Source: an uncultured archaeon (GTDB lineage: Archaea; Iainarchaeota; Iainarchaeia; Iainarchaeales; 0-14-0-20-30-16). From it: a stretch of DNA of 32,000 bases. The stretch lies in NCBI GenBank assembly GCA_964480435.1, contig CAYZSS010000006.1:7340-39339 (forward strand), given 5' to 3'. A program made the position numbers and the translations under genes. Each line of letters opens with the position of its first letter. Positions within the stretch are counted from its first letter, which is position 1. Positions 5,810-25,878 of this stretch are shown here, in pieces. The notes below the pieces were generated by a model. The model was not told where the DNA came from. It ran no database searches and saw only the letters and a list, made by a program, of their open reading frames with translations.

Positions 5810-8800
5810 TTGTTATTGGTGGGGGTAATTCTGCTTTTTGGAGTGGTTTTATTTTTGTCTTCAGAAAAGCAACAATCACAACAAATTTCAGCATTTAATT
5901 CAACGTTGGATAAAACTATTTTTTATGGCTCCGCAACAAATAAAGAGCAAATTTATTTTAAAAATAATTTTGCAGAACCGCTTATACTTATTTTGGCACA
6001 ACCAAAAAGTTTAGCAGAAAAAATATCACAAATAAAAATATATACAAAAAATAAATTGCAAATTTTGGATAATGACCCAGTCATTTCAATAAAACAAGAT
6101 GGAAATCTTGAAGATATTAATTTAGAAATGGTTTATACTTCTTCTACTAAAAAAACATCTTCTTTTTGTGTGCTTTTACCGCAATCGTTTTTTCAAGATT
6201 TTTCTGAAGAACAAACTCTGGCATTTACTGAGAAAATAAAAAACTATTCTTTATTAGATATTAATTATAGTCAAACTCAAATTCTTGAACAAGAGACAGC
6301 AACAAAACTAACAACTTTTTTTAATGAAAATCAAGAACTTAATTTATCAGAAACTAAAAAGACAAATTTAATTTTATTTGAAGATGGCCACGGGATTTCT
6401 GATTCTGAAAAGTTGTTATATGATTCTATAATTAATTTAAAACAAAGTAACCCTGTTGAGTATTATTTACAAGAAGGAAAACAAACACAAATTACTTCTT
6501 ATTTGCAAAATATTGCTAATAATCAAATAGAAAAAGGGCCAACTGATTTTGAAACCTTAAATAATGTTTTAAAATGGGTTTATCATTTTGCAACAATTCC
6601 TGCGAATCAATTATGTGGTTCAAATAATTGTTGTACATTTGATTCTGATTGTCCTCAGGGTTTTCCTCTTAAAGTAAGTGTTACCGCCGATGTTATTGCG
6701 CATAAAATTAATTATCAATCGTGCCATGACTATGCCTTATTATTTGTAACTTTATTGCGTGCTAAAGATATTCCTGCAAAATTTGTTCAAACAGTTGATG
6801 AAGCCTGGTTAAATTCGGCCCTTTACTTAAATAAAATTGGAAAAGATAATGGTGGGTCTTTTATTGAGGTAACTAAAAAAGGAGGATATTCTGCAAGTTA
6901 CCATATTAATGATGTTATTGCTGGTATTGAGGGGGTAGGGCAATGTAGTAATACAAATGTTGAATTAAAAATAAGCAATATTTTATTTCAAGACGAAAAA
7001 TATGCTGTTCAATTAGATTTGTTCTGTAATAATATAAAGATTGGGGATACAGTAACGCATTTTGTAAATGATTTTTTACTGGCCGATTCATTAGGCCAAT
7101 ATACAAAAAATAGTAGTATGGTAAACCATGGTATTACTGAAATTTTTATAAATAATAACTGGCAAATTATAGATCCTCAATTAATTGTTTTTAATCCTCC
7201 AACAAACCAATCAAACCCAACAGATTTTATGGTAATACCTAAAAGAACTGGAAATATAGTAAAATCATATGGGGATAATATGCAAGTAATTATGGGGGAA
7301 GACTTAGATGCTTGGGCTTTAGGGTGGCACAGTATTTCTGATATTATCTCCGCTACGAAAACAACCTATTTTAAGAAAGAAAAATCAGGGGTTTCTTCAG
7401 AAGTATTTGATAAATTTATGGACTTGCTTGACGTCCCTGCTGGCTTAATAAATGGGTCAACAAAGTCATCAACAGAACAGGATGCAAATTCAGAAGCGAT
7501 TATAACTCAAATTTCTAAAAATTCTGTGAGCAATGATAGAAACGAATTATTACAAAAGTATCCTTGGCCTGATAAAATTGAGGTGGGGTTGTCTCCTAAT
7601 AATCCAACAGTTATAATAGAAAGATGGGTTGTAAATCAGAATTTAACTGATCCTTTTGTTACTGATTCTGCACTCCCTGGAAGTATACAAATAAATGGTA
7701 AACCAGTTAATTTTAATGTCAACTCTAATATTGATATAAAAATTTTAGATGAAGAAAATGATTCAAGTGAATTTGGAACAGAACCATATAAACTAAAAAT
7801 AACTTTAAGCTATTCTGATTTTTTTAGTCAAGAACAAGATTTGCCGATAACTTTGGATAAAAATATTCAACTTGATTATGGCTTGTTTGGCAAGGGTTTG
7901 TCTCCAGTCATTGAACTGAAAATAAATTTAAATGACTCTGGAGTAATTTTATATGCAAAACCAGAATTAAATTCGTTAATAAAGGATTATGCATATAAAA
8001 AAGGATGGGATATGCTTCTTGTTCCAAAAATTGATCCAATTAAATTCTTGGATTCTGAACTTTTTGATATAAATTATGACAATAAGACCTATACTCTAAA
8101 AAATGGGAACACAATTGAGGCAAAATTCTATGATGCTGGTTATGGGTATACCGGTATTTTTGTTAAGGGAGGAAATATATCTTTTGGTATTGTTTCTGGG
8201 CTTATAAAAACTATCCCTGAATTGGGGGCGAAGTTTGAAGTTACTGGCGATTGGAAGCTAAAAGTATCAACTGTTAGGGATAAATCTGATGGGTTCTATG
8301 TAGACCCCAATCCTTTATTTAAATTAAGATCAAAGATAATTTCTCAATATGCTCAAAAACCATTTAATTATTTGTTTATAGTTGCTGATGAAAATGAAAT
8401 TCCTATGGAAGATGAATTTGGTTTGATTCCTATTAAAGATCCATTAGACACAAAGAATGAAATTCTAGATAATGCAATTTATGGTAATATCGATTCAGAC
8501 CCTTTTTTGGAGTTATCTGTTGGAAGACTGCCAAGCTCAGATTATAACTATGTATCTGAATATTTTTTACAAAATTTAAAATATGTGCCCCCTGAAAACC
8601 CCCTTTTTAGTTTTATAGGTAATTATGATACTAATGACCCAATAAAGATTTCAAAAGAACAGGTTTTGTTGTACTACCCTTTTACAGGTATGAGTCCCAA
8701 TAAAAATTATAGTGCTGACTTGCAGGGAAATAATAATTTAATATTTAAGCCAGATGTAGACAAATTTAACGAAATAACGGATAGATCAGATTACATTACT

Positions 8801-9940
8801 GTATTAACACATGGTACTCCTGAAGGGCTTTTGTATGACGGTAATGCATTATATAAATATATCCCTAAAGCAGATAAACAAATCATGATTGTAGCAACAT
8901 CCTGTTCTACATCATCAGAATTTGGAAAAAATGTTTTAATAAAAAATGTTAGAAACTATTTTGGAGGGTTACAAATTACATATAATGGAAAAAATGAGTT
9001 TAGTTTAACAACAAATCAAAAACCAAGGATAACAATTGGGGCTGCATATAGAGATTATATAAATGGAGCACTAATAGATGTTAATCGTTCATTTGAATTT
9101 ATTCTTTATGGGGATCCATCTAATTTGATTGATGCATCTAATTTAGAACAAAGTTCCAAACCTAAAACAATTTTTAGTGAAAATGAAGTTCAAATTATAA
9201 TGCCCTCATTTGATGTTAGTACCGTTTTGGCTTATTTAAGTACAGCACTTACCCCTAATGAAATGGCCGAAATGAGTAAAGGTAATTTTGAGGAGGAAAC
9301 TGTGCATTTAAATATGCCAGGGCAGGGTATAGGGTTTGGTTATGTAGGCTCAGAAGCACCATTAATTACCCCGTCAATTTTGACCTTTTTTGACTGTCCA
9401 ATAATTAAGCTAAAAGGCAATAGTAGTTCTAGCTATCCTAATAATCAAAACTCCGCAATGACCTATGAAATAATTCCTTCCTCGGTTGTTGCTACCTATA
9501 CTGATGAAAACAAAGATCCTTTTTCTGAAAAGTTAATTCTTGTGCCTACTGCTTCTGATGACACAAATAGAATCTTAGTTAATTCCAAAGATAAAGAAAT
9601 AAAAAAGATTGGTATTATGTCTTATTGTGCTGACGTGGAAACAGTTATCTCCTTAGGTATTTCTCCAGAAATGTATTACATTGGGAATGGAACAACCAAT
9701 GTGCCATTTTTATATCCACAAGGGACTGATTTTAAACAACTTGACTCATTTTTTTCAAAAATAAAAGGCTTTAAAGTTAAGGCTTCTGGTTCCAATATGG
9801 ATTTCCTGGATTTTAATTCAGATTTTATTTGGTATAATGGTGATTTTAGGGTACAATTATATTGGTCTTATGCTGATTGGTTTAAACTAATTTCTGCAGG
9901 TGCAGAAAAAAGTGGTATAGAAATTAAAATTTATTCTTAA
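5810..9940 (+). CDS. Large (1376 aa) membrane-anchored extracellular protein with a transglutaminase-like cysteine protease core and a clan-CD (peptidase C25/gingipain-like) module
   Basis: N-terminal TM segment LLVGVILLFGVVLFL. Transglutaminase core: QSCHDYALLFVTLLRAKDIPAKFV (Cys305, codon 6722-6724) and NHGITEIFINNNWQIIDPQ (His440, codon 7127-7129, Asp about 15 residues later). C25-like: NYLFIVADENEIP...DNAIYGNIDSDPFLELSVGRLP, then His1001 in VLTHGTPEG (8810-8812) and Cys1032 in IMIVATSCST (8903-8905). The TTG start is uncertain. Confidence 0.7.
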   Translation: MLLVGVILLFGVVLFLSSEKQQSQQISAFNSTLDKTIFYGSATNKEQIYFKNNFAEPLILILAQPKSLAEKISQIKIYTKNKLQILDNDPVISIKQDGNLEDINLEMVYTSSTKKTSSFCVLLPQSFFQDFSEEQTLAFTEKIKNYSLLDINYSQTQILEQETATKLTTFFNENQELNLSETKKTNLILFEDGHGISDSEKLLYDSIINLKQSNPVEYYLQEGKQTQITSYLQNIANNQIEKGPTDFETLNNVLKWVYHFATIPANQLCGSNNCCTFDSDCPQGFPLKVSVTADVIAHKINYQSCHDYALLFVTLLRAKDIPAKFVQTVDEAWLNSALYLNKIGKDNGGSFIEVTKKGGYSASYHINDVIAGIEGVGQCSNTNVELKISNILFQDEKYAVQLDLFCNNIKIGDTVTHFVNDFLLADSLGQYTKNSSMVNHGITEIFINNNWQIIDPQLIVFNPPTNQSNPTDFMVIPKRTGNIVKSYGDNMQVIMGEDLDAWALGWHSISDIISATKTTYFKKEKSGVSSEVFDKFMDLLDVPAGLINGSTKSSTEQDANSEAIITQISKNSVSNDRNELLQKYPWPDKIEVGLSPNNPTVIIERWVVNQNLTDPFVTDSALPGSIQINGKPVNFNVNSNIDIKILDEENDSSEFGTEPYKLKITLSYSDFFSQEQDLPITLDKNIQLDYGLFGKGLSPVIELKINLNDSGVILYAKPELNSLIKDYAYKKGWDMLLVPKIDPIKFLDSELFDINYDNKTYTLKNGNTIEAKFYDAGYGYTGIFVKGGNISFGIVSGLIKTIPELGAKFEVTGDWKLKVSTVRDKSDGFYVDPNPLFKLRSKIISQYAQKPFNYLFIVADENEIPMEDEFGLIPIKDPLDTKNEILDNAIYGNIDSDPFLELSVGRLPSSDYNYVSEYFLQNLKYVPPENPLFSFIGNYDTNDPIKISKEQVLLYYPFTGMSPNKNYSADLQGNNNLIFKPDVDKFNEITDRSDYITVLTHGTPEGLLYDGNALYKYIPKADKQIMIVATSCSTSSEFGKNVLIKNVRNYFGGLQITYNGKNEFSLTTNQKPRITIGAAYRDYINGALIDVNRSFEFILYGDPSNLIDASNLEQSSKPKTIFSENEVQIIMPSFDVSTVLAYLSTALTPNEMAEMSKGNFEEETVHLNMPGQGIGFGYVGSEAPLITPSILTFFDCPIIKLKGNSSSSYPNNQNSAMTYEIIPSSVVATYTDENKDPFSEKLILVPTASDDTNRILVNSKDKEIKKIGIMSYCADVETVISLGISPEMYYIGNGTTNVPFLYPQGTDFKQLDSFFSKIKGFKVKASGSNMDFLDFNSDFIWYNGDFRVQLYWSYADWFKLISAGAEKSGIEIKIYS

Positions 9941-9958
9941 TAAATACTTCTGGGCGTT

Positions 9959-9979
9959 ATATGTGTCATGGACACATAT
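9959..9979. terminator. Perfect 9-bp stem, 3-nt loop hairpin (ATATGTGTC-atg-GACACATAT) at convergent gene ends
   Basis: Lies between the stop of the 1376-aa gene (9940) and the last codons and stop of the minus-strand TrmB gene (9966), which it overlaps. Confidence 0.45.
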
Positions 9980-10706
9980 CCCACATAAATTGGAAGAACT
10001 TTCTATAACCATCTGCTAATGATTTGTTTTTCATAACAAATTGGACAGGGACATCTTCTAAATATCCTGGTTGTGCCCCAACAAAAGTTACAACATAATC
10101 TCCAAAAATATCTATTGCTGTATTTGACGAATATTCTTTTGGTAAAAATTTGTACGGCTTTCCAACTACTCCTAGAATCTCTGGTTTCTGTTTCTTAATT
10201 TCATAATCAAAAAGATGCATAAATTTTATTCCTTGTGCTTTTCTTTTTTGTTCAAATTTTGCAAGATGAATTCTTAATCTGGGATCTAGCCAAAAAGCTT
10301 TTGCTCCAATAAAATAAACTGTTTCGTTGGTTTCAAGAATATCATTCAAATAATTTTTGAATCCTTCAATTCCCTGATACAAATAAGCCTCAGAACTTTC
10401 CTCTACTTTTGCATATTTTTTTTGTAAATCTTGCATTATACTATCTAAATTAGATTCTTTTTCTTGAATTAGCTCTTGTAATCTTCTTGGATTTGTTGCA
10501 CAGTAATGTTTATTTCCGCTGATAATAACTTCTGAAACTAATCCTTTCTCAATAAGTTTGTTTAAGGTATCATAAGTATTTCTTCTGTGCACTCCTGCTC
10601 TATTAGAAATCTTTTCTACTGTTGTTTTTCCCATGGTAATTAGGGATTCATATATTCTGGACTCGTTCTGACTTAACCCTACCTGGCGGAAAATTTCTTC
10701 GTACAT
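9966..10706 (-). CDS. TrmB-family transcriptional regulator
   Basis: MYEEIFRQVGLSQNESRIYESLITMGKTTVEKISNRAGVHRRNTYDTLNKLIEKGLV is a TrmB wHTH. The C-terminal domain is collinear with the ORF at 3507-4271. Confidence 0.85.
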   Translation of the reverse strand: MYEEIFRQVGLSQNESRIYESLITMGKTTVEKISNRAGVHRRNTYDTLNKLIEKGLVSEVIISGNKHYCATNPRRLQELIQEKESNLDSIMQDLQKKYAKVEESSEAYLYQGIEGFKNYLNDILETNETVYFIGAKAFWLDPRLRIHLAKFEQKRKAQGIKFMHLFDYEIKKQKPEILGVVGKPYKFLPKEYSSNTAIDIFGDYVVTFVGAQPGYLEDVPVQFVMKNKSLADGYRKFFQFMWDMCP

Positions 10707-12419: not shown

Positions 12420-14051
12420 TTATTTTATTGAATTATAAATCATCTTGTGTGTTCCGATAAGTTCTTGTCCTACATTGTAATTGGGTAAGTTTTTTTGTAA
12501 AATTATTTTTAATGTCTCTGCTCTTTTTGTGTGTTTTATTTTGTAATTTAAACTTGAGGTGCCAGGGTCAGTTTTTTTGCCACAATAATAATTAGAAATT
12601 TTGCTTTTTTTTGTAAGCATAAATTTACTTATTTGGAAACTAAAAATGTTATTCTTATTTTGTAATACAAGTTGTATAGTTTTTTTAAAATCAACATTTG
12701 TTTCTCCTGGAAAATCAGTCATTAAATAGATGTGATTAGCAATACCTGCTTTTGTGGTGCTACTAAGGATTTTTTTGACATCTGAAATTTTATATCCCTT
12801 GTTCATTAAATCAATTATCTTTTGAGACCCACTTTCTAAGCCAAAAGACAAAAATTGACAGCCTGCTTTGTTTAATAAGTTACAAAAGTCTTTATCTTTA
12901 AAATCTTTTTCTAGTCTGCAAGCCGTTTCCCAATTTACCTTTTTATTTATAAGTTTGTCTGCTAGCTGTTTGAGGTAAGAAGGATGTATTGCTTCATCTA
13001 CAAATCTAAAATAATTTACTCCATATTCTTTTTTAAAATAGCATAATTCTTCAATGGTTTTTTTAATTCCTTTAATACGGTATAATTTATTATAACCCTC
13101 ACAAATATCGCAAAAGGTACATTTATTCCAATAACAGTTTCTTGAAAAAATAGTAGGTAACACTTTTTCTGGAGATAAATATAAGTTTAGGGGGTAGCCA
13201 TCAAAGTTAGGAGTTGGAAGGTCTTTAAGTAAAATTTGTTTATCAACTGAACCATTTCTGGTTATTTTTTTATCGTGCCAAAGCAAACCAGGTACTTCTT
13301 CTAAACTGCTATTATTTTTTATGGTGTTTATTAGTTTTTGCAGAGGGATTTCGCCTTCTTTCTCAATGTAAAAATCAACATATTTGAAATAGAGTTCGTT
13401 TTTTAAAATGTCTTTAGCTAAACGTGTAATTGTTGTGCCGCCAAATACAATTTTTATGTTTTTGTGCTTTTCTTTTATTTTTTTTGCTAAATCAAAGGCG
13501 GGAACAAGCTGGTCAATTAATACTATTGAAAAACCAACTAATGTGGGCTTTGTTTTTAGTATTTGTTTTATGATACTTTCATTAAATTTGGAAAAAATAC
13601 TTTCTTCGTTTAGATTTTTTAACATTTTTTTTGGATTATTTGTCCCGTATTTTGGTTTATATTGTGTTAAAGATAATGTTTCGCCAGGAAATGCGCTTGA
13701 AATAAGGTGTAATGCATATTTTATCATTCTTGCATGTTTTGTGTAGTTTTGTAAATCAAGTAAAACGGCTCTATTACGTATTTGTTTTTTGCTATTTTCT
13801 ATATTATCAACAAGATAATCTGACATTATTAGCGCGAGTTTCTGGGCTTTGTTTCGCTTTTTCATTTTTTTTAGTCTGTGTTTGCACAATTGTAAATATT
13901 TTTTTGTTAATAGCTGATCATACGCCATTACATTAGCATCGATTATTTCTACTGTTATTCCTTCCCCTTCAAGATATCCTTTTAAAAGCGGTATTGCTAA
14001 GTGTGGATGAATGGGATTAATTTGTGGAGGGAAAATAAGTAATGTTTTCAT
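12420..14051 (-). CDS. B12-binding-domain radical SAM enzyme (class B-like), substrate unknown
   Basis: The N-terminal Rossmann-like region (LVGFSIVLIDQLVPAFDLAKKIKEKHKNIKIVFGGTTIT) resembles a cobalamin-binding domain. The cluster motif SRNCYWNKCTFCD has C-x4-C-x2-C spacing, followed by a radical SAM core (FRFVDEA, FLSFGLESGS). Confidence 0.75.
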   Translation of the reverse strand: MKTLLIFPPQINPIHPHLAIPLLKGYLEGEGITVEIIDANVMAYDQLLTKKYLQLCKHRLKKMKKRNKAQKLALIMSDYLVDNIENSKKQIRNRAVLLDLQNYTKHARMIKYALHLISSAFPGETLSLTQYKPKYGTNNPKKMLKNLNEESIFSKFNESIIKQILKTKPTLVGFSIVLIDQLVPAFDLAKKIKEKHKNIKIVFGGTTITRLAKDILKNELYFKYVDFYIEKEGEIPLQKLINTIKNNSSLEEVPGLLWHDKKITRNGSVDKQILLKDLPTPNFDGYPLNLYLSPEKVLPTIFSRNCYWNKCTFCDICEGYNKLYRIKGIKKTIEELCYFKKEYGVNYFRFVDEAIHPSYLKQLADKLINKKVNWETACRLEKDFKDKDFCNLLNKAGCQFLSFGLESGSQKIIDLMNKGYKISDVKKILSSTTKAGIANHIYLMTDFPGETNVDFKKTIQLVLQNKNNIFSFQISKFMLTKKSKISNYYCGKKTDPGTSSLNYKIKHTKRAETLKIILQKNLPNYNVGQELIGTHKMIYNSIK

Positions 14052-14298
14052 AATCTCGCCTAATAAAATAAAAAAACTAGAAGTGGCATTCGGTTTTGTT
14101 ATAGTCAGAAAGAATTAAATCCGCTATTTGCCTATATTTTTCTAGTTTACAACTATTAAAGCCTGCGAATAGGTCTTTTATGCTTTTCACATTTGAGTTC
14201 ATATGTATATTTGATCTGACCTATAATAAAAACTCTTTCACAAAACTGTTTTTAATAATGACAAAATATATATTGCTTTTGTAACTATTAGTAAATAT

Positions 14299-15246
14299 AT
14301 GCTTACAAAGACGGATAAAAATATTTTATATGAATTAGATAAAAATGCCAGACTGTCTGGGACCCAAATTGCTAATAAATTAAAATATTCTCCTGAAGCA
14401 GTAAATTATAATATTAGAAAACTAGAGAATCAAGGAGTTATTACAGATTATATTGCTGTAACAGATTTTTCTAAATTAGGCTTGACTCATTATAAATTTA
14501 ATCTTAAGTTTAACCATTTGAACGAAAATATTAGAAAAGAGGTTGTTGATTTTTTAAAAAAAGAAAAATCAGTAAAATGGATTGCTGATTGTGAGGGTGA
14601 TTTTGACCTGATGTTTTCAGTGCGGAGTAAAACTTTAAAAGAATTTGAAAAGCTGAAAACAAGTTTGTTTTTTGAATTTGACAAATACTTAAATAAAAAA
14701 ACAATAGTAACTGTTTCAGAAGCAACAATGTACACTCGTGGGTATATAACAAATAAAGATAAAAAAGAGTTTGTGTTATATTCGGGATCAGATGAAATTG
14801 TAGTTTCGGATGAAGAAAGGCTTATATTGGATTCTTTAGCAGTTGGTTGTCGGGCATCTATTTATGAATTAAGTAAAAAACTAGGTATTACTCCTCGGGT
14901 AATTAGGTATGCTATAAAAAAACTAGAAAACAAAAAAATAATTTCGGGCTATAAGTTGGCAATAAATTATTCAAAAATGAATTACCTCTTTTTTAAATTA
15001 TTCATAAACTTACAATCTGCATCAGATTCAAGGATTTTTGCTTTTAAACAATATTGTGAACAACACCCTAATTTTACTTATTGGGTAAGGGTTATTGGGT
15101 CTTGGGATATGGAACATGAAATTGAAGTGCCTAGTGTACAAGAATTTAATAAGCTTCTTGGCGAGATAAGACGCAACTTTTCAGATATTATTCAAACAAT
15201 GAATTCTGTTATGATTACTCATGAATACAAATTAATTCATGCTTAA
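14299..15246 (+). CDS. Fused tandem Lrp/AsnC-type regulator (two HTH plus RAM-like units in one chain)
   Basis: Unit 1: DKNILYELDKNARLSGTQIANKLKYSPEAVNYNIRKLENQGVITDY. Unit 2: ERLILDSLAVGCRASIYELSKKLGITPRVIRYAIKKLENKKIISGY. Each is followed by about 90 aa of beta-alpha-beta RAM-like sequence. Confidence 0.75.
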   Translation: MLTKTDKNILYELDKNARLSGTQIANKLKYSPEAVNYNIRKLENQGVITDYIAVTDFSKLGLTHYKFNLKFNHLNENIRKEVVDFLKKEKSVKWIADCEGDFDLMFSVRSKTLKEFEKLKTSLFFEFDKYLNKKTIVTVSEATMYTRGYITNKDKKEFVLYSGSDEIVVSDEERLILDSLAVGCRASIYELSKKLGITPRVIRYAIKKLENKKIISGYKLAINYSKMNYLFFKLFINLQSASDSRIFAFKQYCEQHPNFTYWVRVIGSWDMEHEIEVPSVQEFNKLLGEIRRNFSDIIQTMNSVMITHEYKLIHA

Positions 15247-15347
15247 TATTTGAAAAGAAATAAGTCTGGCAAGAAATCTGTTTAGAAATTAGAACTGCTA
15301 ATTTTTATGCTTTTACATCTTATTTATATTAGAAAAATATATTTTGT

Positions 15348-16166
15348 GTGATAATTATGGTGATGCGAAAACCAATTCATAAAGAAATACAAGAACCCAA
15401 AAAAGAAGGAAGAGGGGCTGTGGTATTAAGTATTTTAGAAAAAGATTTAGTATCTTATCGTAATTCTGCTGCTCATTCTTTTGTTTCACAACCCCGGATA
15501 ATGCGTAGAAGAGAATGGGTAAAAACAATAATAAACCGTGGTGCGTTTTTGTCTATTGATAATTTAGAAAAATCAACAGAATATTTTAGGGCCAATATTC
15601 AGGAATTAGAAAGAAGATTTAGTGTAATTCCTGCAGTAATAGAAGGTGCAGAAATTAGTTATGGTGAAAAAGTGCTTTTTGAAATAACTGGTAGATTAAG
15701 AAGGTTAGAAGCAATTAGACTAAAAAGTGATGAACGTGTTATTTTAAATTTATTAAAAGAAGAAGTGGAAAGATTAAATTACGCAAATGCCCTTGCTTTA
15801 GAATGGGGCTCTTTTTTTGAAAGAAATAGAAATATTTCTCCTGGGGAAATAGATGGGCTGGTTGCAAGAATAATTGAGGCAGGAATAACAGGGGACTTTT
15901 CTGGTCCAAATAAGTTTCAGGCAATGGCTTTCACTCCTGATGTGTTGATTGATGCTAAAAAAGCTATTATGCTTGAAGAACAAACAAAAGAAGGTATACG
16001 TTATAGGTTAAATCCTGAATTTGCTTTAAGGTTAGTGGCTGCAGCAAAAGCAAAGTTACTTGCTGGGTATTTGTCTGGGTTTAAATCTTTAAAGACATCC
16101 GAACTTGATTCTGAGGTAAAACCTGTTCTTGAGAAAGTAGAATCTATTTTAAGTAGAGTAAAATAA
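15348..16166 (+). CDS. Hypothetical protein, predominantly alpha-helical, no motif recognised
   Basis: Long ORF of 272 aa. The start is ambiguous (GTG 15348, ATG 15357 or ATG 15363). TATA-like TTTATATT at 15323-15330 suggests a leaderless or short-leader transcript. Confidence 0.6.
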   Translation: MIIMVMRKPIHKEIQEPKKEGRGAVVLSILEKDLVSYRNSAAHSFVSQPRIMRRREWVKTIINRGAFLSIDNLEKSTEYFRANIQELERRFSVIPAVIEGAEISYGEKVLFEITGRLRRLEAIRLKSDERVILNLLKEEVERLNYANALALEWGSFFERNRNISPGEIDGLVARIIEAGITGDFSGPNKFQAMAFTPDVLIDAKKAIMLEEQTKEGIRYRLNPEFALRLVAAAKAKLLAGYLSGFKSLKTSELDSEVKPVLEKVESILSRVK

Positions 16167-16434
16167 GTTTTTTATAAAGAGTATATTTTTTGTTTTTTTC
16201 AAAACTTTCTAACAGTGGGTAATTGTGTTTCTTGGTAAGGCATTACAGTTATTATTTCTAAGATATTAAATAAAAATACACAATATAATAAAAAAGGTAT
16301 AATTGATAACTTTGTCTATCGGGAAAACGGAAAAAACTAAAATGATTGTTATGTTGATTAATTTAAGAGGAATTATTGTTTTATCTGGGTATTAATTTAA
16401 ATATAATAAAGTTCAAATTAATATGTGATTTATT

Positions 16435-16629
16435 ATGGTTAGAGAATTTAAGAAGTTTAAATTGCCTGGAAAAGACGGTGCAACAACAAGAGACAGAAAC
16501 ACAAAGCCCTTAGAAAAAGTAAGGACCCCAATTAAACCTGTTAGTACTTATTCTGCCCGTGGCAGAATAGGGTCTGTTGTTGCCTCTTTATTATTAGCAT
16601 TTGCAGCGGGGGGGCAAAGGCGGATGTAA
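16435..16629 (+). CDS. Small basic protein (64 aa) with C-terminal hydrophobic signal-anchor-like segment; possibly the N-terminal part of the next ORF
   Basis: MVREFKKFKLPGKDGATTRDRNTKPLEKVRTPIKPVSTYSARGR, then IGSVVASLLLAFAAGG, then QRRM-stop. The stop overlaps the next start (ATGTAATG). A G7 run lies at 16608-16614. Confidence 0.5.
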   Translation: MVREFKKFKLPGKDGATTRDRNTKPLEKVRTPIKPVSTYSARGRIGSVVASLLLAFAAGGQRRM

Positions 16630-17303
16630 TGCCTGGCTCTCCATCAAATGTTGCGAGAACAAAAACTACAGCGGTATCCACATATAACGAAGCAGGCAAA
16701 GATTATTTTTTGCATAATCTTGGAATATCTAGAGAAGTAGCGGAGTCAGTAGGGTTGCGATTAGAATACACATATATTGTAGTTGGTGGTAAAAAAATAC
16801 TGACGCCCACTTTTATCTTTGCAGGGGGTAAGGCGATTTCTTTTGGTGCAGGAATTGGTTTAAGTGATCTTAAACTTAAGGAGGGTACTTTTTTAAGGCC
16901 GGTTGCTAGGGCAGGTGTATCTTTTACTTTGCCTAAAACTGGGACTGGTGTAGAAGTAAAAGCACTTAACATTGCCCGCGATATGCAAAGTTTTTTTGGG
17001 ACACTAGAAGTAAACCAAGAATTAGTAAAAGACTGGCTATCTGCATCAGCAGAATATATAAATATGGGTCTTAAAAAAAATGACGTACAATTTGGTTTAA
17101 AACTGTCGCTTCAAGAAATTGTTAGGCACCCATTAACAATACAATTTATAAAAAGTTTGAAAAACGCCCATACCAATTATGAATTTTATGTGTCTACCCC
17201 TGTAATGATTGGGGGGAATAACGCATATTTATCTATTGGGGTTTATGGTGCAAAAAAAGAGCATGTGGGTACATTATTTTTTACAATTCCATTTGGTAAA
17301 TAG
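16629..17303 (+). CDS. Beta-strand-rich protein of unknown function (224 aa)
   Basis: Repeated amphipathic strand-like segments: LRLEYTYIVVGG, AGVSFTLP, GVEVKALNIA, VQFGLKLSL, YEFYVSTPVMIGG, AYLSIGVYGA, GTLFFTIPFGK. It has no N-terminal signal of its own. Confidence 0.6.
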   Translation: MPGSPSNVARTKTTAVSTYNEAGKDYFLHNLGISREVAESVGLRLEYTYIVVGGKKILTPTFIFAGGKAISFGAGIGLSDLKLKEGTFLRPVARAGVSFTLPKTGTGVEVKALNIARDMQSFFGTLEVNQELVKDWLSASAEYINMGLKKNDVQFGLKLSLQEIVRHPLTIQFIKSLKNAHTNYEFYVSTPVMIGGNNAYLSIGVYGAKKEHVGTLFFTIPFGK

Positions 17304-17330
17304 TTTTTTATAAAAAAAGAAAAGGAAAAA

Positions 17331-18440
17331 TTAGTTTATTTTTACTAATTTTTCGCCATCTACTTTGTATATTCCGAAGCTTGCTCTATCTAATATTCCA
17401 TCAGCATCAAATTTATGGTCTCCCAAAATTCCTTTATAACTCATGGAATATAATTCTGATTTTACTTTTTCTGGGTCAAAAGAATCTATACTTTCTATTG
17501 CAGTTTTTAGCATAAATAATGAATCATATGCCCAGCCGTAACAAAGCGAATCTATTGCCATTCCCTCTGTTTTTTTAGTTACTGTTTTTATTAATTCTTC
17601 ATCAGAAATTTTTGCTTCTGCTTTTATTGTATATGCTCCGTTTGTAGCTGACCCTAATGATTTTATTGTTTCGGGAGTTAACATCTGTGGAATATATAGT
17701 GGTATTTTTATTCCAAGTTGTTGGGCATCTTTTAATGTGTTCTCGGTTGGCCCAGGAAATTGTGCGGCATATATTAATTCTGGCTTTGAATCTGCAGCTT
17801 TTTGTAAAACTGTTTTAAAGCTAATCTCATCTTTTGCAGTTCCTTCTACAGATACAATAGTACCTCCTAATTTTTCAAAGCTTGAAATAAATCCTGTTTT
17901 TTCTCCTTCTCCCCAATCGTTGAGAGTATATATTATTGCAACTTTTCTAACACCTAAGGTACCGTAAATATATTCTGCCGATACTTTTGTTTCTAACTCA
18001 TCTAATGGGAATAATACAAATGAATAATCTCCGGCAGTTCTTACTTTTGGTGCTGATGCACAATATGATATATGTATTGTTTCTGTGCTTTCTGCGATGG
18101 CTGCTCCAGATAATACTTCAGGGGAACACAAACCACCGATAATATAATCTACATCATCTACTTGTATTAGTTTGTTGTATGCTTCACTTCCACCTGATGA
18201 ACTGCACTTTCCATCTTCGTAGATTATTTCAAAAGGTACTCCGTTTATTTTGTAGCCCATTTTTTCTGCAGCTTCTTCAACAGCTATTTTTGATGGTACT
18301 CCAAAAACGGCCATGTCTCCAGATAGAGGCCCTACAAAACCAATCTTTATTTTTGGTTCATTTTTTTCTAATCCCAGGAAAACCCCTAGAATAACAGCAA
18401 TTACTAATATTGCTCCTACAAACAAATAACTTTTTTTCAC
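17331..18440 (-). CDS. LivJ/LivK-type amino-acid binding protein with N-terminal membrane anchor; no ABC partner nearby
   Basis: GTG start with GGAGGGG SD. Anchor SYLFVGAILVIAVILGVFLGL. IKIGFVGPLSGDMAVFGVPSKIAVEEAAEKMGYKINGVPFEIIYEDGKC is the binding-protein N-lobe pattern. Paralogous to the ORF at 2290-3408. Confidence 0.8.
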   Translation of the reverse strand: MKKSYLFVGAILVIAVILGVFLGLEKNEPKIKIGFVGPLSGDMAVFGVPSKIAVEEAAEKMGYKINGVPFEIIYEDGKCSSSGGSEAYNKLIQVDDVDYIIGGLCSPEVLSGAAIAESTETIHISYCASAPKVRTAGDYSFVLFPLDELETKVSAEYIYGTLGVRKVAIIYTLNDWGEGEKTGFISSFEKLGGTIVSVEGTAKDEISFKTVLQKAADSKPELIYAAQFPGPTENTLKDAQQLGIKIPLYIPQMLTPETIKSLGSATNGAYTIKAEAKISDEELIKTVTKKTEGMAIDSLCYGWAYDSLFMLKTAIESIDSFDPEKVKSELYSMSYKGILGDHKFDADGILDRASFGIYKVDGEKLVKIN

Positions 18441-18558
18441 AGCGTCCCCTCCTTTTGGTTGCTATTTATTACTGGTTTTCTATATTTTTATGCCTTTCTT
18501 GAAATATTTTTTCTAATTCGAAACAAAAGTATATATTATTTTCTGTTTTGTAATACTT

Positions 18559-19527
18559 ATGGAGAATATTAATAACATTGACAGAAAAATTTTATTTGAG
18601 CTTGATTTTAATTCCGCTGCTCCTTTGTCTTTGATTGCAAAAAGGTTAAAAATATCTAGGCAAAGTCTTTCACATCGAATATTTGTTTTACAAAATAAAG
18701 GTGTTTTGGGATCTTCTATAGGGATTTTTGATAGTGCTGTGGTTGGCTTTTTCTGGTATAGAATTATTTTTAAATTAATAAATGCTGATAAAAAACAAAA
18801 AACAGACTTTTTTTCTTATTTGAAAACAAACAAAAATACTCTTTGGGTTGGAGAATTAGGTGGGGATGCTGATTGTATTGCTAACTTTGCTGCAAAAAAT
18901 ACTTCTGAATTTAATTTAATTTATGAAGATCTGATTTTTAAATTTGGAAAAATAATAAAAGAATTAGTAGTTTTACCTTATGTTGATGTTTATGATTTAA
19001 ATAGAGCTTATTTTTGTCCAACAGTTTCTGGAAGGCAAGAATTTTATCATTCAATGAAATTAAATGAAAATTTAATATTAGATAAAATTAATAAAGATAT
19101 AATTAAAGAATATTGTAAGGGGAAAATATCTTCAAATGTAAAAGTAGGATATTCTTTAAATGTATCAGATAATACAATTAGAAATAGAGTAAAGGAAATG
19201 AAAAAAAATAATTTTTTATTAGGTTTTAGGCAATTTGTAAACCCTAGTAGATATGGGTATGTAGTTAATTTTTTGTTTTTAGAATTAAACAATTGTGATG
19301 AAATTTCAGAAAAAAAATTATACGATTATGCCCGGAATAATAAAAATGTAATTTACATAACAAAACATATTGGGAAATGGCGTATCGGTTTGGAAATAGA
19401 AACCACTTCAACATATGAGTTTTATAGTATTTTTTCCGAAATAAAATCAGTTTTTAAAGACATTATTACGGATTTTGATCATTTTTTGCTAATCAAAGAT
19501 CATAAAATAAGGTATTTCCCTGAATAA
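18559..19527 (+). CDS. Fused tandem Lrp/AsnC-type regulator, paralog of the ORF at 14299-15246
   Basis: Unit 1: DRKILFELDFNSAAPLSLIAKRLKISRQSLSHRIFVLQNKGVL. Unit 2: LILDKINKDIIKEYCKGK...VGYSLNVSDNTIRNRVKEMKKNNFLLGF. Length and architecture match the first paralog. Confidence 0.7.
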   Translation: MENINNIDRKILFELDFNSAAPLSLIAKRLKISRQSLSHRIFVLQNKGVLGSSIGIFDSAVVGFFWYRIIFKLINADKKQKTDFFSYLKTNKNTLWVGELGGDADCIANFAAKNTSEFNLIYEDLIFKFGKIIKELVVLPYVDVYDLNRAYFCPTVSGRQEFYHSMKLNENLILDKINKDIIKEYCKGKISSNVKVGYSLNVSDNTIRNRVKEMKKNNFLLGFRQFVNPSRYGYVVNFLFLELNNCDEISEKKLYDYARNNKNVIYITKHIGKWRIGLEIETTSTYEFYSIFSEIKSVFKDIITDFDHFLLIKDHKIRYFPE

Positions 19528-19623: not shown

Positions 19624-21162
19624 ATGCAGACCGACATTTCTACTTCATTGGATTTGAATGCTATAATCGGCGAAGTTATCCAGTATACACAAGCAAAAGG
19701 GGTAATTGTAGATAAAGAGGCAGCAATTTTCTTGTCAAAGCAAGAGAATTATGAAGAAATAATTCAAATTGCAATAAAACAGAAAGAATCTTTCTTAGAT
19801 CTTAAAAAAGTAGAAGCAATTATTCTTAAATCTTCTTCTGACTTAAACATAACTTATGATAATAAAACAAACATTTCTAACCTTGAAGTAGTTGTAGAAA
19901 ATAGGGCAAAAAGAAAAGAAGCAAAAGAATATGATGCAAAAATAAAAATAATAAAAGATGCGGATGTTACAAATAACGCTACTGGTCAAGGAAAAGTAAG
20001 TGATTTTGTTGATTATCAAAAAGAAAGGTATGCAATTTTATCTAATTTTATAAAAAAACATTCTGGATTTTCTCCAGTAGCATCAAGTGGAATAAAATAT
20101 AGCTCTAAAGGAGTTGAAATAGATGTTATTGGCATGTTTTATGAAAAACGAGAAACTAAAAGTGGAAACTTATTAGCTGTTTTTGACGATTCAGCGGGAT
20201 TTTTTAATGTTATTTTTGATAAAAATAAACCCATATATGCGCAAGCCAGAAGATTATTAGATGATGATGTTATTGGAATAAAAGGAGTAAAAATAGATGA
20301 TAGGTTAATTTATGCGTCAGAAATAATATTTCCTGATATGCCTGTAGCAGTACCTAAAAAAATCGATTTAGATTTAGATATTGCATTTACTTCTGATATA
20401 CATTTAGGTAGTAAAATGTTTTTTGAAAAACAATTTAGTAATTTTATTGATTGGTTAAGTAATGGTGAAGATAGTAGTAAAATAAAATATCTTGCTATTG
20501 CTGGGGACGTTGTTGATGGGATAGGGGTATATCCTCAACAGGATGAAGAATTAGCAATGAAAGATATTTACAAACAGTATGAAGTATTGTCAAGTTATAT
20601 TGAAAAAATTCCGGACTATATAGAGGTATTTATTATTTCTGGGAATCACGATGCAGTAAGAAGGGCTGACCCACAACCAGCAATACCAAAAGAATATGTG
20701 AAAAAATTGTATTCTTTAAAAAATGTACATGTGCTTGGAAGCCCATCTGTTGCAGAAGTAGAGGGTTTAAATCTGTTAATGTACCATGGTAATTCTATGA
20801 ATGATATTCAACCAAAATTAGGGCTTTCTTTTTCTGAACCAATTCCAGCAATGGAAGCATATCTTTTGCGAAGAGATTTAGCACCTATATATGGTGGAAA
20901 AAATCCAATATCTCCGGATGTAGGTGGTTTTTTACAAATAAAAGAAGAGCCAGACATTTTTGTTACTGGTCATTTACATTCAAATGGTTACGGTACATAC
21001 AAAAGAACAACTTTAATAAACCCTGGGACTTGGCAGGACCAAACAAGTTTTCAAAAACAACAAGGCCATATGCCAACACCTGGGCGAGTTCCTTTGCTTA
21101 ATTTTAAGTCTGGAAAAATTATAGAAAAAGTTTTCATTAGTGAAAACAAACAGCAGGTGTAA
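19624..21162 (+). CDS. polB: DNA polymerase D (archaeal Pol II) small subunit DP1
   Basis: Calcineurin-like phosphoesterase motifs DIAFTSDIHLGS, IAGDVVDG, ISGNHD and GHLH, with an OB-like middle region. It sits directly upstream of DP2, with the stop 2 nt before the DP2 ATG. Confidence 0.9.
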   Translation: MQTDISTSLDLNAIIGEVIQYTQAKGVIVDKEAAIFLSKQENYEEIIQIAIKQKESFLDLKKVEAIILKSSSDLNITYDNKTNISNLEVVVENRAKRKEAKEYDAKIKIIKDADVTNNATGQGKVSDFVDYQKERYAILSNFIKKHSGFSPVASSGIKYSSKGVEIDVIGMFYEKRETKSGNLLAVFDDSAGFFNVIFDKNKPIYAQARRLLDDDVIGIKGVKIDDRLIYASEIIFPDMPVAVPKKIDLDLDIAFTSDIHLGSKMFFEKQFSNFIDWLSNGEDSSKIKYLAIAGDVVDGIGVYPQQDEELAMKDIYKQYEVLSSYIEKIPDYIEVFIISGNHDAVRRADPQPAIPKEYVKKLYSLKNVHVLGSPSVAEVEGLNLLMYHGNSMNDIQPKLGLSFSEPIPAMEAYLLRRDLAPIYGGKNPISPDVGGFLQIKEEPDIFVTGHLHSNGYGTYKRTTLINPGTWQDQTSFQKQQGHMPTPGRVPLLNFKSGKIIEKVFISENKQQV

Positions 21163-24596: not shown

Positions 24597-25250
24597 ATGG
24601 ACTTTGATAATCTGTTTTCTATTCTTGAAAAAGAAACAAAAAAATTTAATGTTCCAGTGGTAGACTTAATAAAAACACAAACAAAAAATAATTATAAAAT
24701 TCTTGTGTCTACAATTTTGTCGGCAAGAACAAAAGATGAAATTACTGCAGAAGCTAGTAGTGGATTATTTAAAAAAGCAGAAAACTTTTTAGAATTAAAT
24801 AAACTAGGATTACAAGAAATAGAAAAACTAATTTATCCTGTTGGGTTTTATAAAACAAAAGCAAAACATTTAAAGCAAGTGGGACAAATTATTCTGGAAA
24901 AATATAAAGGGAAAATACCATCAGAAATTGAATCCTTACTTTCTCTTCCGGGTGTTGGAAGAAAAACTGCGAATCTTTATCTTTCTGTTGCACTAAACAA
25001 AGACGCTATCTGTGTTGATACTCATGTTCACAGAATTTTTAATAGGTTGGGGTTAATAAAAACAAAAAAACCATCTGAAACTGAGAAAGAATTGATGAAA
25101 TTGGTTCCAAAAAAATATTGGAAAAAAATAAATTTTTATTTTGTTGCTTGGGGTCAAAATACTTGTAAACCAATTAATCCTAAATGTAACTTTTGTAAGA
25201 TAAGTAAGTTTTGTAAAAGAGTTGGTGTAAATGTTAATAAACAAAATTAA
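24597..25250 (+). CDS. nth: Endonuclease III (HhH-GPD DNA glycosylase/AP lyase with 4Fe-4S cluster)
   Basis: ILSARTKDE. HhH LPGVGRKTANLYL. VDTHVHRIFNRLGL. C-terminal CKPINPKCNFCKISKFC (C-x6-C-x2-C-x5-C). Confidence 0.9.
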   Translation: MDFDNLFSILEKETKKFNVPVVDLIKTQTKNNYKILVSTILSARTKDEITAEASSGLFKKAENFLELNKLGLQEIEKLIYPVGFYKTKAKHLKQVGQIILEKYKGKIPSEIESLLSLPGVGRKTANLYLSVALNKDAICVDTHVHRIFNRLGLIKTKKPSETEKELMKLVPKKYWKKINFYFVAWGQNTCKPINPKCNFCKISKFCKRVGVNVNKQN

Positions 25251-25878
25251 TTCTTTGAAAAAATCAGAAATAAAAAAACAAGTTGACAAAAGAATAAACG
25301 AATTTGAAATAAACAGAACTGTTGATGAAATATTTTCTGAATTGTGCTTCTGTCTTTTGACAGCAAACTTTAATGCAGAAAGAAGCATAAAGATTCAAAA
25401 TGAAATTGGGGTGAACGGGTTCCTGAATTTGCCTGAGAAAAAACTTGTAGAAAAATTAAAAGAATTAGGACATAGATTTTACAATAAAAGAGCAGAGTAT
25501 ATTGTGGAAGCAAGAAAGCAAATAGGAAAAATATTTGCGGTGATTAAACAAGAAAAAGAAAAAAAGACAAATAAAAAAACAGAAAGCCTTGAAATAAGAA
25601 CTTGGTTAATTGGCAACATAAAAGGTTTAGGATTAAAAGAAGCAAGTCATTTTCTAAGGAATATTGGGTTTAAAGATTTTGCAATTATAGATTTTCATAT
25701 TGTAGACCTGCTAGTAAAAGAGGGGCTAATAGGAAAACAGAAACGAGGTGCTCTTACTCAAAAGAAATATCTTGATATTGAACAAATCTTATTTGGTATA
25801 AGCAAAAAAGTAAATCTTAATTTGGCAGAGCTAGATTTATATCTGTGGTATTTAGAAACAGGGAAAATACTTAAATGA
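25231..25878 (+). CDS. ogg: Archaeal N-glycosylase/DNA lyase (Ogg2-type 8-oxoguanine glycosylase)
   Basis: FSELCFCLLTANFNAERS and IKGLGLKEASHFLRNIGFKDFAIIDFHIVDLL match the Ogg2 family pattern. It overlaps the end of nth by 20 nt. Confidence 0.8.
   Translation: MLINKINSLKKSEIKKQVDKRINEFEINRTVDEIFSELCFCLLTANFNAERSIKIQNEIGVNGFLNLPEKKLVEKLKELGHRFYNKRAEYIVEARKQIGKIFAVIKQEKEKKTNKKTESLEIRTWLIGNIKGLGLKEASHFLRNIGFKDFAIIDFHIVDLLVKEGLIGKQKRGALTQKKYLDIEQILFGISKKVNLNLAELDLYLWYLETGKILK

Follow-up and report, generated by a model that had tools for sequence, protein, structure and literature searches.

Introduction

Two overlapping open reading frames (ORFs) that meet at a run of seven guanines may be two genes, one gene read through by recoding, one gene that is switched on and off, or one gene that has been broken. 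This question is raised by positions 16435-17303 of a 32,000-nucleotide stretch of DNA from an uncultured archaeon of the Iainarchaeota (contig CAYZSS010000006.1, positions 7,340 to 39,339 of the forward strand), here called the window. A short ORF (ORF1) is followed there by a longer one in the -1 frame (ORF2), the stop of the former and the start of the latter overlapping as ATGTAATG (16624-16631). An earlier description made from the letters alone, hereafter the sequence-only reading, had reported both ORFs, this overlap, a single G7 tract and a -1 frame open from 16545, and all of these were confirmed. Our analysis indicates that the ancestral state is one gene, and that the window probably carries a loss-of-function allele of it, generated by slippage, fixed in the sampled population and lying in a decaying variable island.

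Results

Homologues align across the junction

The 289-aa fused model, searched exhaustively with phmmer against 1.84 billion representatives, returned P0003 (271 aa, E 4e-15, query residues 33-288 aligned), P0004 (306 aa, E 5e-14, residues 47-287) and P0005 (366 aa, E 4e-10, residues 51-289); P0007, which is 50% identical to P0005, was added later by a profile search with the trimmed mature domain. Each of the five distant homologues found is a single ORF whose alignment crosses the junction. The proposal of the sequence-only reading that a single gene, joined at the G tract, underlies both ORFs is thereby borne out, and the comparison of fused and split forms in relatives that it had recommended gave fused forms throughout, in relatives that are all distant. 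After the hydrophobic segment the homologues carry the motif A-[KRH]-A-D-[TV] (IARADT, TAHADT, VRADT and, in P0007, ARADT), to which AKADV corresponds in the window. A-x-A-D is invariant in 5/5 family members, and the family alignment does not vary at A63 and D64 of the fused model. In tblastn comparisons of the homologues with the window, alignments in the frame of ORF2 reach 5' to 16614 or 16599, and the Met that opens ORF2 is shared with P0005 and P0007 (ADTMPG). On this alignment, the ATG of ORF2 is an ancestral internal Met codon, and the TAA of ORF1 is made of the ancestral Val-Met codons GTA-ATG read out of frame. Because the homologues are fused and AKADV is encoded 5' of the ORF2 ATG in the ORF2 frame, the gene was single in its ancestral state. 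Its frame changes between the hydrophobic segment and AKADV, and the G tract, as the sole homopolymer of that interval, is the most likely site; a -1 shift or one added G gives ...LLLAFAAGG-AKADV-MPGSPSN....

The family is very small, with six members among ~15 billion proteins. With the fused model as query, a word-index search recovered nothing but the ORF2 of the window itself; a full-alignment profile search recovered this ORF2 and the already known P0005, and nothing else. Related-locus searches of genome and metagenome contigs gave no match with the fused protein, and likewise none with a 2-sequence alignment. No close orthologue was obtained, and the syntenic interval of the nearest genome holds different genes.

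The sequence-only reading had also noticed a related peptide in the two ORFs (RTPIKPVSTYSARGR versus RTKTTAVSTYNEAGK) and taken it as a sign of selection on the protein sequence. The resemblance exists (7/15 identical), but at chance level: BLASTP of ORF1 against ORF2 gave no alignment at E<=100, and shuffled versions of ORF1 reached at least 7/15 identity with ORF2 in 37/400 cases. Selection on a shared motif is thus not supported.

The G7 tract recurs in independent assemblies

Exact-sequence look-up retrieved the same locus from other assemblies, and G7 is identical in five of them: L005 (Logan SRR8437247), L011 (Logan SRR8437217), L010 (ENA ERZ27248937, from which L013 also comes), L014 (ENA ERZ27248961) and L012 (ENA ERZ27248895). 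Besides that of the window, these represent at least two other assemblers and at least two distinct runs. The exact 64-aa product of ORF1 is recorded in NCBI, JGI/IMG, Logan and ENA and forms a singleton 90% cluster, in which no variant of other length was called. No fused product was found by a word-index search of 5.8 billion 90% clusters, nor by phmmer over the 1.84 billion representatives, which are 50% representatives of the ~15 billion proteins. The window assembly is not indel-prone, since 93 long homopolymers inside 20 intact window ORFs cause no disruption and the Pfam matches of PolD DP1 and DP2, CysRS, CDC48 and both PBPs are complete. Given this, and given that G7 recurs in five other assemblies, the tract is real and an assembly error very unlikely.

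The G7 tract is the sole G/C run of at least 7 in the window and reads GC-G GGG GGG in frame 0. Its existence is not unusual, as dinucleotide-preserving shuffles give the same count (G7/C7 in 32 kb: 1 observed vs a mean of 1.11, with at least one in 62/100 shuffles; runs of G6 or more: 6 vs 5.3 expected); what matters is solely where it sits, at the frame junction.

Haplotypes and the variable island

The nearest genome is that of the DPANN archaeon Ca. Ainarchaeum sp. STB_43 (L007), whose PolD DP1 is 74% identical. From the sodium:solute symporter gene (89% identical) to PolD, this genome has 3.1 kb vs 7.2 kb in the window (6870-10000 vs 12420-19527), and the gene content of the two intervals is unrelated. 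The STB_43 interval includes a 434-aa secreted protein and lacks the ORF1/ORF2 region; that of the window includes two double-helix-turn-helix Lrp/AsnC-like regulators (14299-15246 and 18559-19527). Because the syntenic interval is shorter and its genes are unrelated, the locus lies in a variable island.

Three haplotypes are visible, and G7 is common to all of them, which argues for a fixed lesion over rapid switching. The window combines a G4 run at 15414-15417 with a full-length ORF2; L010 and L016 combine G5 with a full-length ORF2; L005, L012, L014 and the JGI contigs carry a 2,776-bp deletion (with G5 in L005 and L014, L012 beginning 3' of the G4/G5 run). This deletion is bounded by direct repeats of the form GAT(T/C)ATTTTTTGC at 16701-16713 and 19477-19489, which read GATTATTTTTTGC and GATCATTTTTTGC. 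It takes ORF2 from codon 29, the PBP gene at 17331-18440 and most of the Lrp-like gene at 18559-19527, and joins codon 28 of ORF2 to the last 12 Lrp-like codons in a chimeric 40-aa ORF (P0006). An A>C change at 20237 is found in L005 and L014, a position that L012 does not reach, and the end of contig L011 is the exact branch point (16713). Since it removes ORF2, this irreversible deletion in part of the population shows that the gene is dispensable.

The G4/G5 run lies in the adjacent upstream gene (ORF 15348-16166), with G4 in the window vs G5 in L005, L010, L011, L014, L015 and JGI, and is the sole difference between L010 and the window over 9.76 kb. With G4 (NCBI only), the gene is intact at 269/272 aa from its promoter-proximal start; with G5 (Logan, ENA and JGI), it is split into a 36-aa leaderless ORF and a 248-aa body. 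As G4/G5 toggles this gene between assemblies, G-run indels segregate in the population; the difference itself is either a real G-tract frame polymorphism or an error of the metagenome-assembled genome (MAG).

Export signal and predicted fold

The fused N-terminus has the anatomy of a Sec-type signal, ...SARGR-IGSVVASLLLAFAAGG-AKA↓DV, in which AKA↓D would be a signal-peptidase-I-like site. In the fused model, a positive n-region (13 K/R vs 4 D/E in ORF1 residues 1-44) precedes a hydrophobic h-region, and positions -3/-1 are occupied by small residues (AxA). With 44 aa in the window and >100 aa in P0005 and P0007, the n-region is longer than is typical. In ORF1 it is followed by IGSVVASLLLAFAAGG, which is the sole hydrophobic segment of the locus (Kyte-Doolittle value up to 2.13), then by QRRM and the stop. 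ORF2 has no hydrophobic segment at its own N-terminus, in agreement with the sequence-only reading, which had seen no targeting signal there. The h-region that it had proposed is also supported; the cleavage site, which it had placed at AFA-A, is more likely AKA↓D, beyond the junction, and cleavage there would leave DVMPGSPSNVAR as the mature N-terminus. A class III (pilin-type) signal was considered and rejected, alignment inspection having shown no consistent [KR]-G/A motif 5' of the h-region across the family.

Searches of Pfam, NCBIfam and PDB profiles assigned no family to the protein, and PHROGs gave one member at E 0.045 only. AlphaFold2 modelled the full fused protein at pLDDT 35.6. 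For the mature domain with a 5-sequence alignment, it gave pLDDT 64 and pTM 0.60, with 13 long antiparallel strands in hairpin order, most of them with alternating hydropathy across the family; the C-terminal 45 residues are below pLDDT 50. In Foldseek against the PDB, the top 50 matches are nearly all transmembrane beta-barrels, though weak (best E 3e-3, TM 0.46; TM <= 0.52), and include invasin/intimin beta-domains, KdgM, OmpG, PorV, FadL and porins; a structure search of BFVD gave the same barrel picture. The checks by structure prediction and profile search that had been proposed thus ended in a moderate barrel-like model and no sequence family. We hold with moderate confidence that the mature domain may be a beta-barrel resembling outer membrane proteins (OMPs), which is a lead rather than a result. 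The suggestion that the downstream part is a beta-rich exported domain agrees with the anatomy of the homologues and with the predicted strands. To our knowledge, no outer membrane or BAM machinery has been described for such archaea.

The contigs that carry family members differ in appearance. L001, with an archaeal CCA-enzyme domain, and L002, with RadA, look archaeal; the two contigs of P0004 (L003 and L004, 49% GC), with sigma-70 genes (regions 2 and 4) on both sides, look bacterial. Because of these contexts, the family may span both domains. P0007, in L009 (Logan DRR438494), has an in-frame TAA at 1231-1233, past which homology runs on in frame for ~80 codons, to ...LFLAIPFK-stop. Possible explanations of this TAA are a nonsense mutation, an error and readthrough; on the alignment, P0007 is the second disrupted member in this family of six.

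Organisation of the locus

The features of the locus are collected in Table 1. ORF1 and ORF2 have a GC content of 42% and 37%, vs 25-34% in their neighbours. A promoter-like box precedes ORF1 only; the mRNA that it could serve would be leaderless or nearly so. An A/T box stands equally far from the ATG in other first cistrons of the window, whereas internal genes have a GGAGGTG/GGTG Shine-Dalgarno sequence. The imperfect Shine-Dalgarno-like AGGCGGA ahead of ORF2 could permit some reinitiation and thereby a product of ORF2 without signal. Oligo-T is an archaeal-type termination signal, and on that ground the T6 run at the end of ORF2 may act as a terminator.

Table 1. Features of the locus, with positions in the window unless a contig is named.
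Feature	Position	Strand	Description
TATA-like box TTTAAATA	16396-16403	+	32-39 nt 5' of ORF1 ATG; read from sequence; candidate promoter
ORF1	16435-16629	+	64 aa; read from sequence
5' part of ancestral gene	16435-16614	+	frame 0: basic n-region (44 aa), then h-region IGSVVASLLLAFAAGG
G7 tract	16608-16614	+	likeliest place of the 1-nt shift in frame; G8 or G6-N-G expected in an intact allele
AKADV	16614-16628	+	in frame of ORF2, 5' of ORF2 ATG; fits A-x-A↓D-[TV]
QRRM-stop, out-of-frame tail of ORF1	16615-16629	+	probable frameshift by-product; no counterpart in any homologue
AGGCGGA, imperfect Shine-Dalgarno-like	16618-16624	+	4 nt 5' of ORF2 ATG; partial match to local GGAGGTG/GGTG
ORF2	16629-17303	+	224 aa; -1 frame relative to ORF1
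Rest of mature domain (ORF2)	16629-17303	+	predicted antiparallel beta-meander or beta-barrel; 227 aa if counted from Asp
T6 run	17304-17309	+	directly 3' of TAG stop; read from sequence
Noted span of P0004 contig L003	1-1161
Noted span of P0004 contig L004	1046-1780

Other observations

Elsewhere in the window, an ORF of 1,376 aa with a TTG start (5810-9940) has no Pfam match at E<=1e-5 and encodes a large uncharacterised protein. In a relative (L006, CAZMCX010000013, 4319-5754), the PolD DP2 match is broken by ~1.4 kb at residue 893 of the window protein. This interruption, absent from the DP2 of the window, looks like an intein or an insertion. Two DNA-glycosylase genes of the window (HhH-GPD/EndoIII-like and Ogg-HhH; 24597-25250 and 25231-25878) overlap by 20 nt; both have complete domains and are thus not a split gene.

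Discussion

A slippage allele as the favoured reading

In the reading that we favour as the probable one, the ancestral gene would have encoded a pre-protein of ~289 aa with a long basic n-region, a 16-residue h-region, an A-K-A↓D site and a mature domain of ~227 aa, predicted to form a 12-14-stranded antiparallel beta-barrel of OMP-like topology. Loss of one G by slipped-strand mispairing in replication would be the simplest origin of the present allele. Translation from the promoter-proximal ATG would then end 4 codons past the tract and yield a 64-aa basic peptide with a hydrophobic C-terminal segment, the beta-domain being cut off from its export signal. At most, small amounts of a signal-less cytoplasmic beta-domain might arise via reinitiation at the ancestral internal Met. 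The gene is likely non-functional, either as a young pseudogene or as an OFF allele without sign of switching. The deletion haplotype, the absence of the gene from STB_43, the G4/G5 polymorphism upstream and the in-frame TAA of the L009 member all point to a dispensable gene in a decayed region, and the promoter-like box found ahead of ORF1 only is a further point for this reading.

Several points weigh against this reading. ORF2 is still an uninterrupted frame of 224 codons in AT-rich DNA, from which it follows that the lesion is very young or the frame still in use. The layout is that of a classic contingency locus: the genome has 30% GC, and the G8/G7 tract sits in the 5' part of the coding sequence of an exported protein. 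G-tract indels do segregate in the population at the neighbouring gene. Through the SD-like AGGCGGA (SD, Shine-Dalgarno) and the TAATG overlap, ORF2 could be translated by coupling. Finally, the comparison covers consensus sequences, in which a minority G8 subpopulation would be invisible, and the assemblies may go back to common read sets, at least two of the runs being distinct.

Alternative explanations

That the true sequence is G8 and the gene an ordinary intact one is very unlikely, to the point of being almost negligible. Homopolymers are the commonest place for indel errors, and the MAG of the window differs from all other assemblies at the G4/G5 run, but the same G7 stands in five further assemblies, its product is also in JGI, the G8 form was found nowhere in the protein searches and the 93 other long homopolymers sit in intact ORFs; the sequencing or assembly indel that the sequence-only reading had listed among its options is therefore abandoned. 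Its other option of a coupled pair, in which a tail-anchored basic peptide of 64 aa and a 224-aa protein would form a functional module coupled through the TAATG overlap, is highly improbable. Such a module would need to have arisen from a family whose homologues are all fused, with the conserved AKADV left 5' of the ORF2 ATG in the ORF2 frame, a start codon that appears to be an ancestral internal Met, a stop drawn from GTA-ATG out of frame, and an ORF2 deprived of the export signal present in every homologue; the motif claimed to be shared is not significant. In favour of such a pair stand the stop/start overlap itself, the AGGCGGA ahead of the ORF2 ATG and the fact that gene callers in four sources call both ORFs. 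Quite improbable, too, is recoding, by which the full-length protein would be made from the G7 template and the split would be a regulatory device as in Sulfolobus fucA1, either through -1 programmed ribosomal frameshifting (PRF) on G GGG GGG or through an extra G inserted by RNA-polymerase slippage. Slippage in transcription is known mainly at A/T runs of 9 or more. The sequence-only reading was right that the heptamer has the letter pattern X XXY YYZ; a -1 slip would allow both tRNAs to pair again without mismatch, ORF2 is intact, and there is an archaeal precedent for -1 PRF in a gene split at a homopolymer-containing heptamer, whose intact orthologues differ by one tract base (PMC1616953, PMC8211752). 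A functional slippery site, however, requires Y = A/U, Z not G and a structure 5-9 nt downstream (PMC8211752), and G GGG GGG breaks both parts of the letter rule. RNA folding against shuffles (minimum free energy, pseudoknots being outside the model) gave z = -0.43 for 16608-16700 and z = +0.91 for 16619-16700, with only a 5-bp hairpin predicted 3' of G7, and an Rfam scan found no family in the window. The junction DNA of P0003, P0004 and P0005, which the homopolymer scan covered, consists of single frames with no homopolymer at the equivalent position, and P0007 has one frame across its ARADTMPG junction. Because the heptamer is non-canonical, no structure follows it and the site is not conserved, programmed -1 frameshifting, also among the earlier options, is not supported by the sequence.

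Reversible phase variation, in which replication slippage would toggle the tract between G8 (ON, exported beta-barrel) and G7 (OFF, currently favoured), is possible but unlikely. G7 is at the low end of the hypermutable tract lengths known from Campylobacter/Neisseria loci. It is also uniform at the consensus level, in the window and in L005, L010, L011, L012 and L014, across at least three haplotypes, with the ORF1 product also in JGI and no fused product in the protein searches. The tract is neither over-represented nor longer than composition predicts, one G7 per 32 kb being the chance expectation; the homologues have no repeat at this site, and part of the population has lost the gene irreversibly. 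What keeps this possibility in view is that the tract sits 5' in the coding region and separates the export signal from the mature domain, that its length sets the frame and G8 would restore it, that ORF2 is otherwise intact, and that, in a genome of 30.5% GC, GGG-GGG encodes 0/32 of the Gly-Gly pairs of other ORFs. In addition, the frame of the adjacent gene is switched by G4 vs G5 as the sole L010-window difference in 9.76 kb, and 5' homopolymeric tracts have been proposed in general as inactivation switches, with 18 archaeal genomes in the statistics (PMC2831843). An extended form of this idea, that the locus belongs to a small set of G-tract switches in which G7/G8 gates export of the barrel and G4/G5 the adjacent gene, and that the protein comes from an undescribed cross-domain family of signal-peptide-bearing, transmembrane-type beta-barrels, is rather improbable. 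If true, it would provide the first documented phase-variable surface protein in Archaea, and a gated barrel family would in turn mean that these archaea have an outer membrane or form a pore in a host membrane.

Significance

With a slippage-generated loss-of-function allele as the favoured reading, the frameshift itself is ordinary, a homopolymer indel having split one gene, and annotation should take 16435-17303 as one disrupted gene and not as two hypothetical proteins. In two adjacent genes of the island, the length of a G run decides the frame, and one of the two is polymorphic in this respect among assemblies from a single population. The family of the disrupted gene is very rare and unannotated, with a conserved AxA↓D export signal and a predicted OMP-like barrel, and its contigs look archaeal for the most part. 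Should the fold be borne out, it would be relevant to envelope construction or host contact in DPANN cells.

Comparison with known systems

With bacterial outer-membrane beta-barrels (intimin/invasin, 4e1s/4e1t; KdgM, 4fqe; OmpG), the predicted protein would share a signal peptide with an AxA site and a mature domain of about 225 aa, predicted to be built of long antiparallel hairpin strands of alternating hydrophobic and polar residues. Unlike them, the present family matches no described family in the Pfam, NCBIfam and PDB profile searches, its fold matches are weak with a model at pLDDT 64, and the contigs of most members look archaeal.

With the poly-G/C contingency loci of Campylobacter jejuni, Helicobacter and Neisseria, the locus has in common an AT-rich genome and a G tract in a surface-related gene, the length of which sets the frame; a gene next to it also has a G-tract frame polymorphism. 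Known poly-G/C contingency loci usually have G8-G13 and length heterogeneity within a population, whereas the tract here is G7 and uniform in all consensus sequences.

In Sulfolobus solfataricus fucA1, as here, archaeal ORFs in the 0 and -1 frames overlap at a homopolymer-containing heptamer and intact homologues exist elsewhere. The heptamer of fucA1 is A AAA AAT, with flanking rare codons, a putative stem-loop and a demonstrated full-length product (PMC1616953; PMC8211752). That of the present locus is G GGG GGG, outside the slippery rule and without predicted structure, in a gene for a putative exported protein as opposed to a cytoplasmic enzyme.

The poly(A) tract of Listeria monocytogenes inlA is likewise a 5' homopolymer in the gene of an exported, surface protein, in which a change of +/-1 leaves a short N-terminal peptide, and natural lineages exist in which truncated inlA alleles have become fixed (Orsi et al. 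2010, PMC2831843). It differs in being a bacterial poly(A) whose reversion is ~1000x the point-mutation rate (PMC2831843); the present tract is a poly(G) of uniform length in the consensus sequences of a DPANN archaeon. By analogy with inlA, the mechanism is of a known kind, that of homopolymer frameshift alleles of surface-protein genes (PMC2831843).

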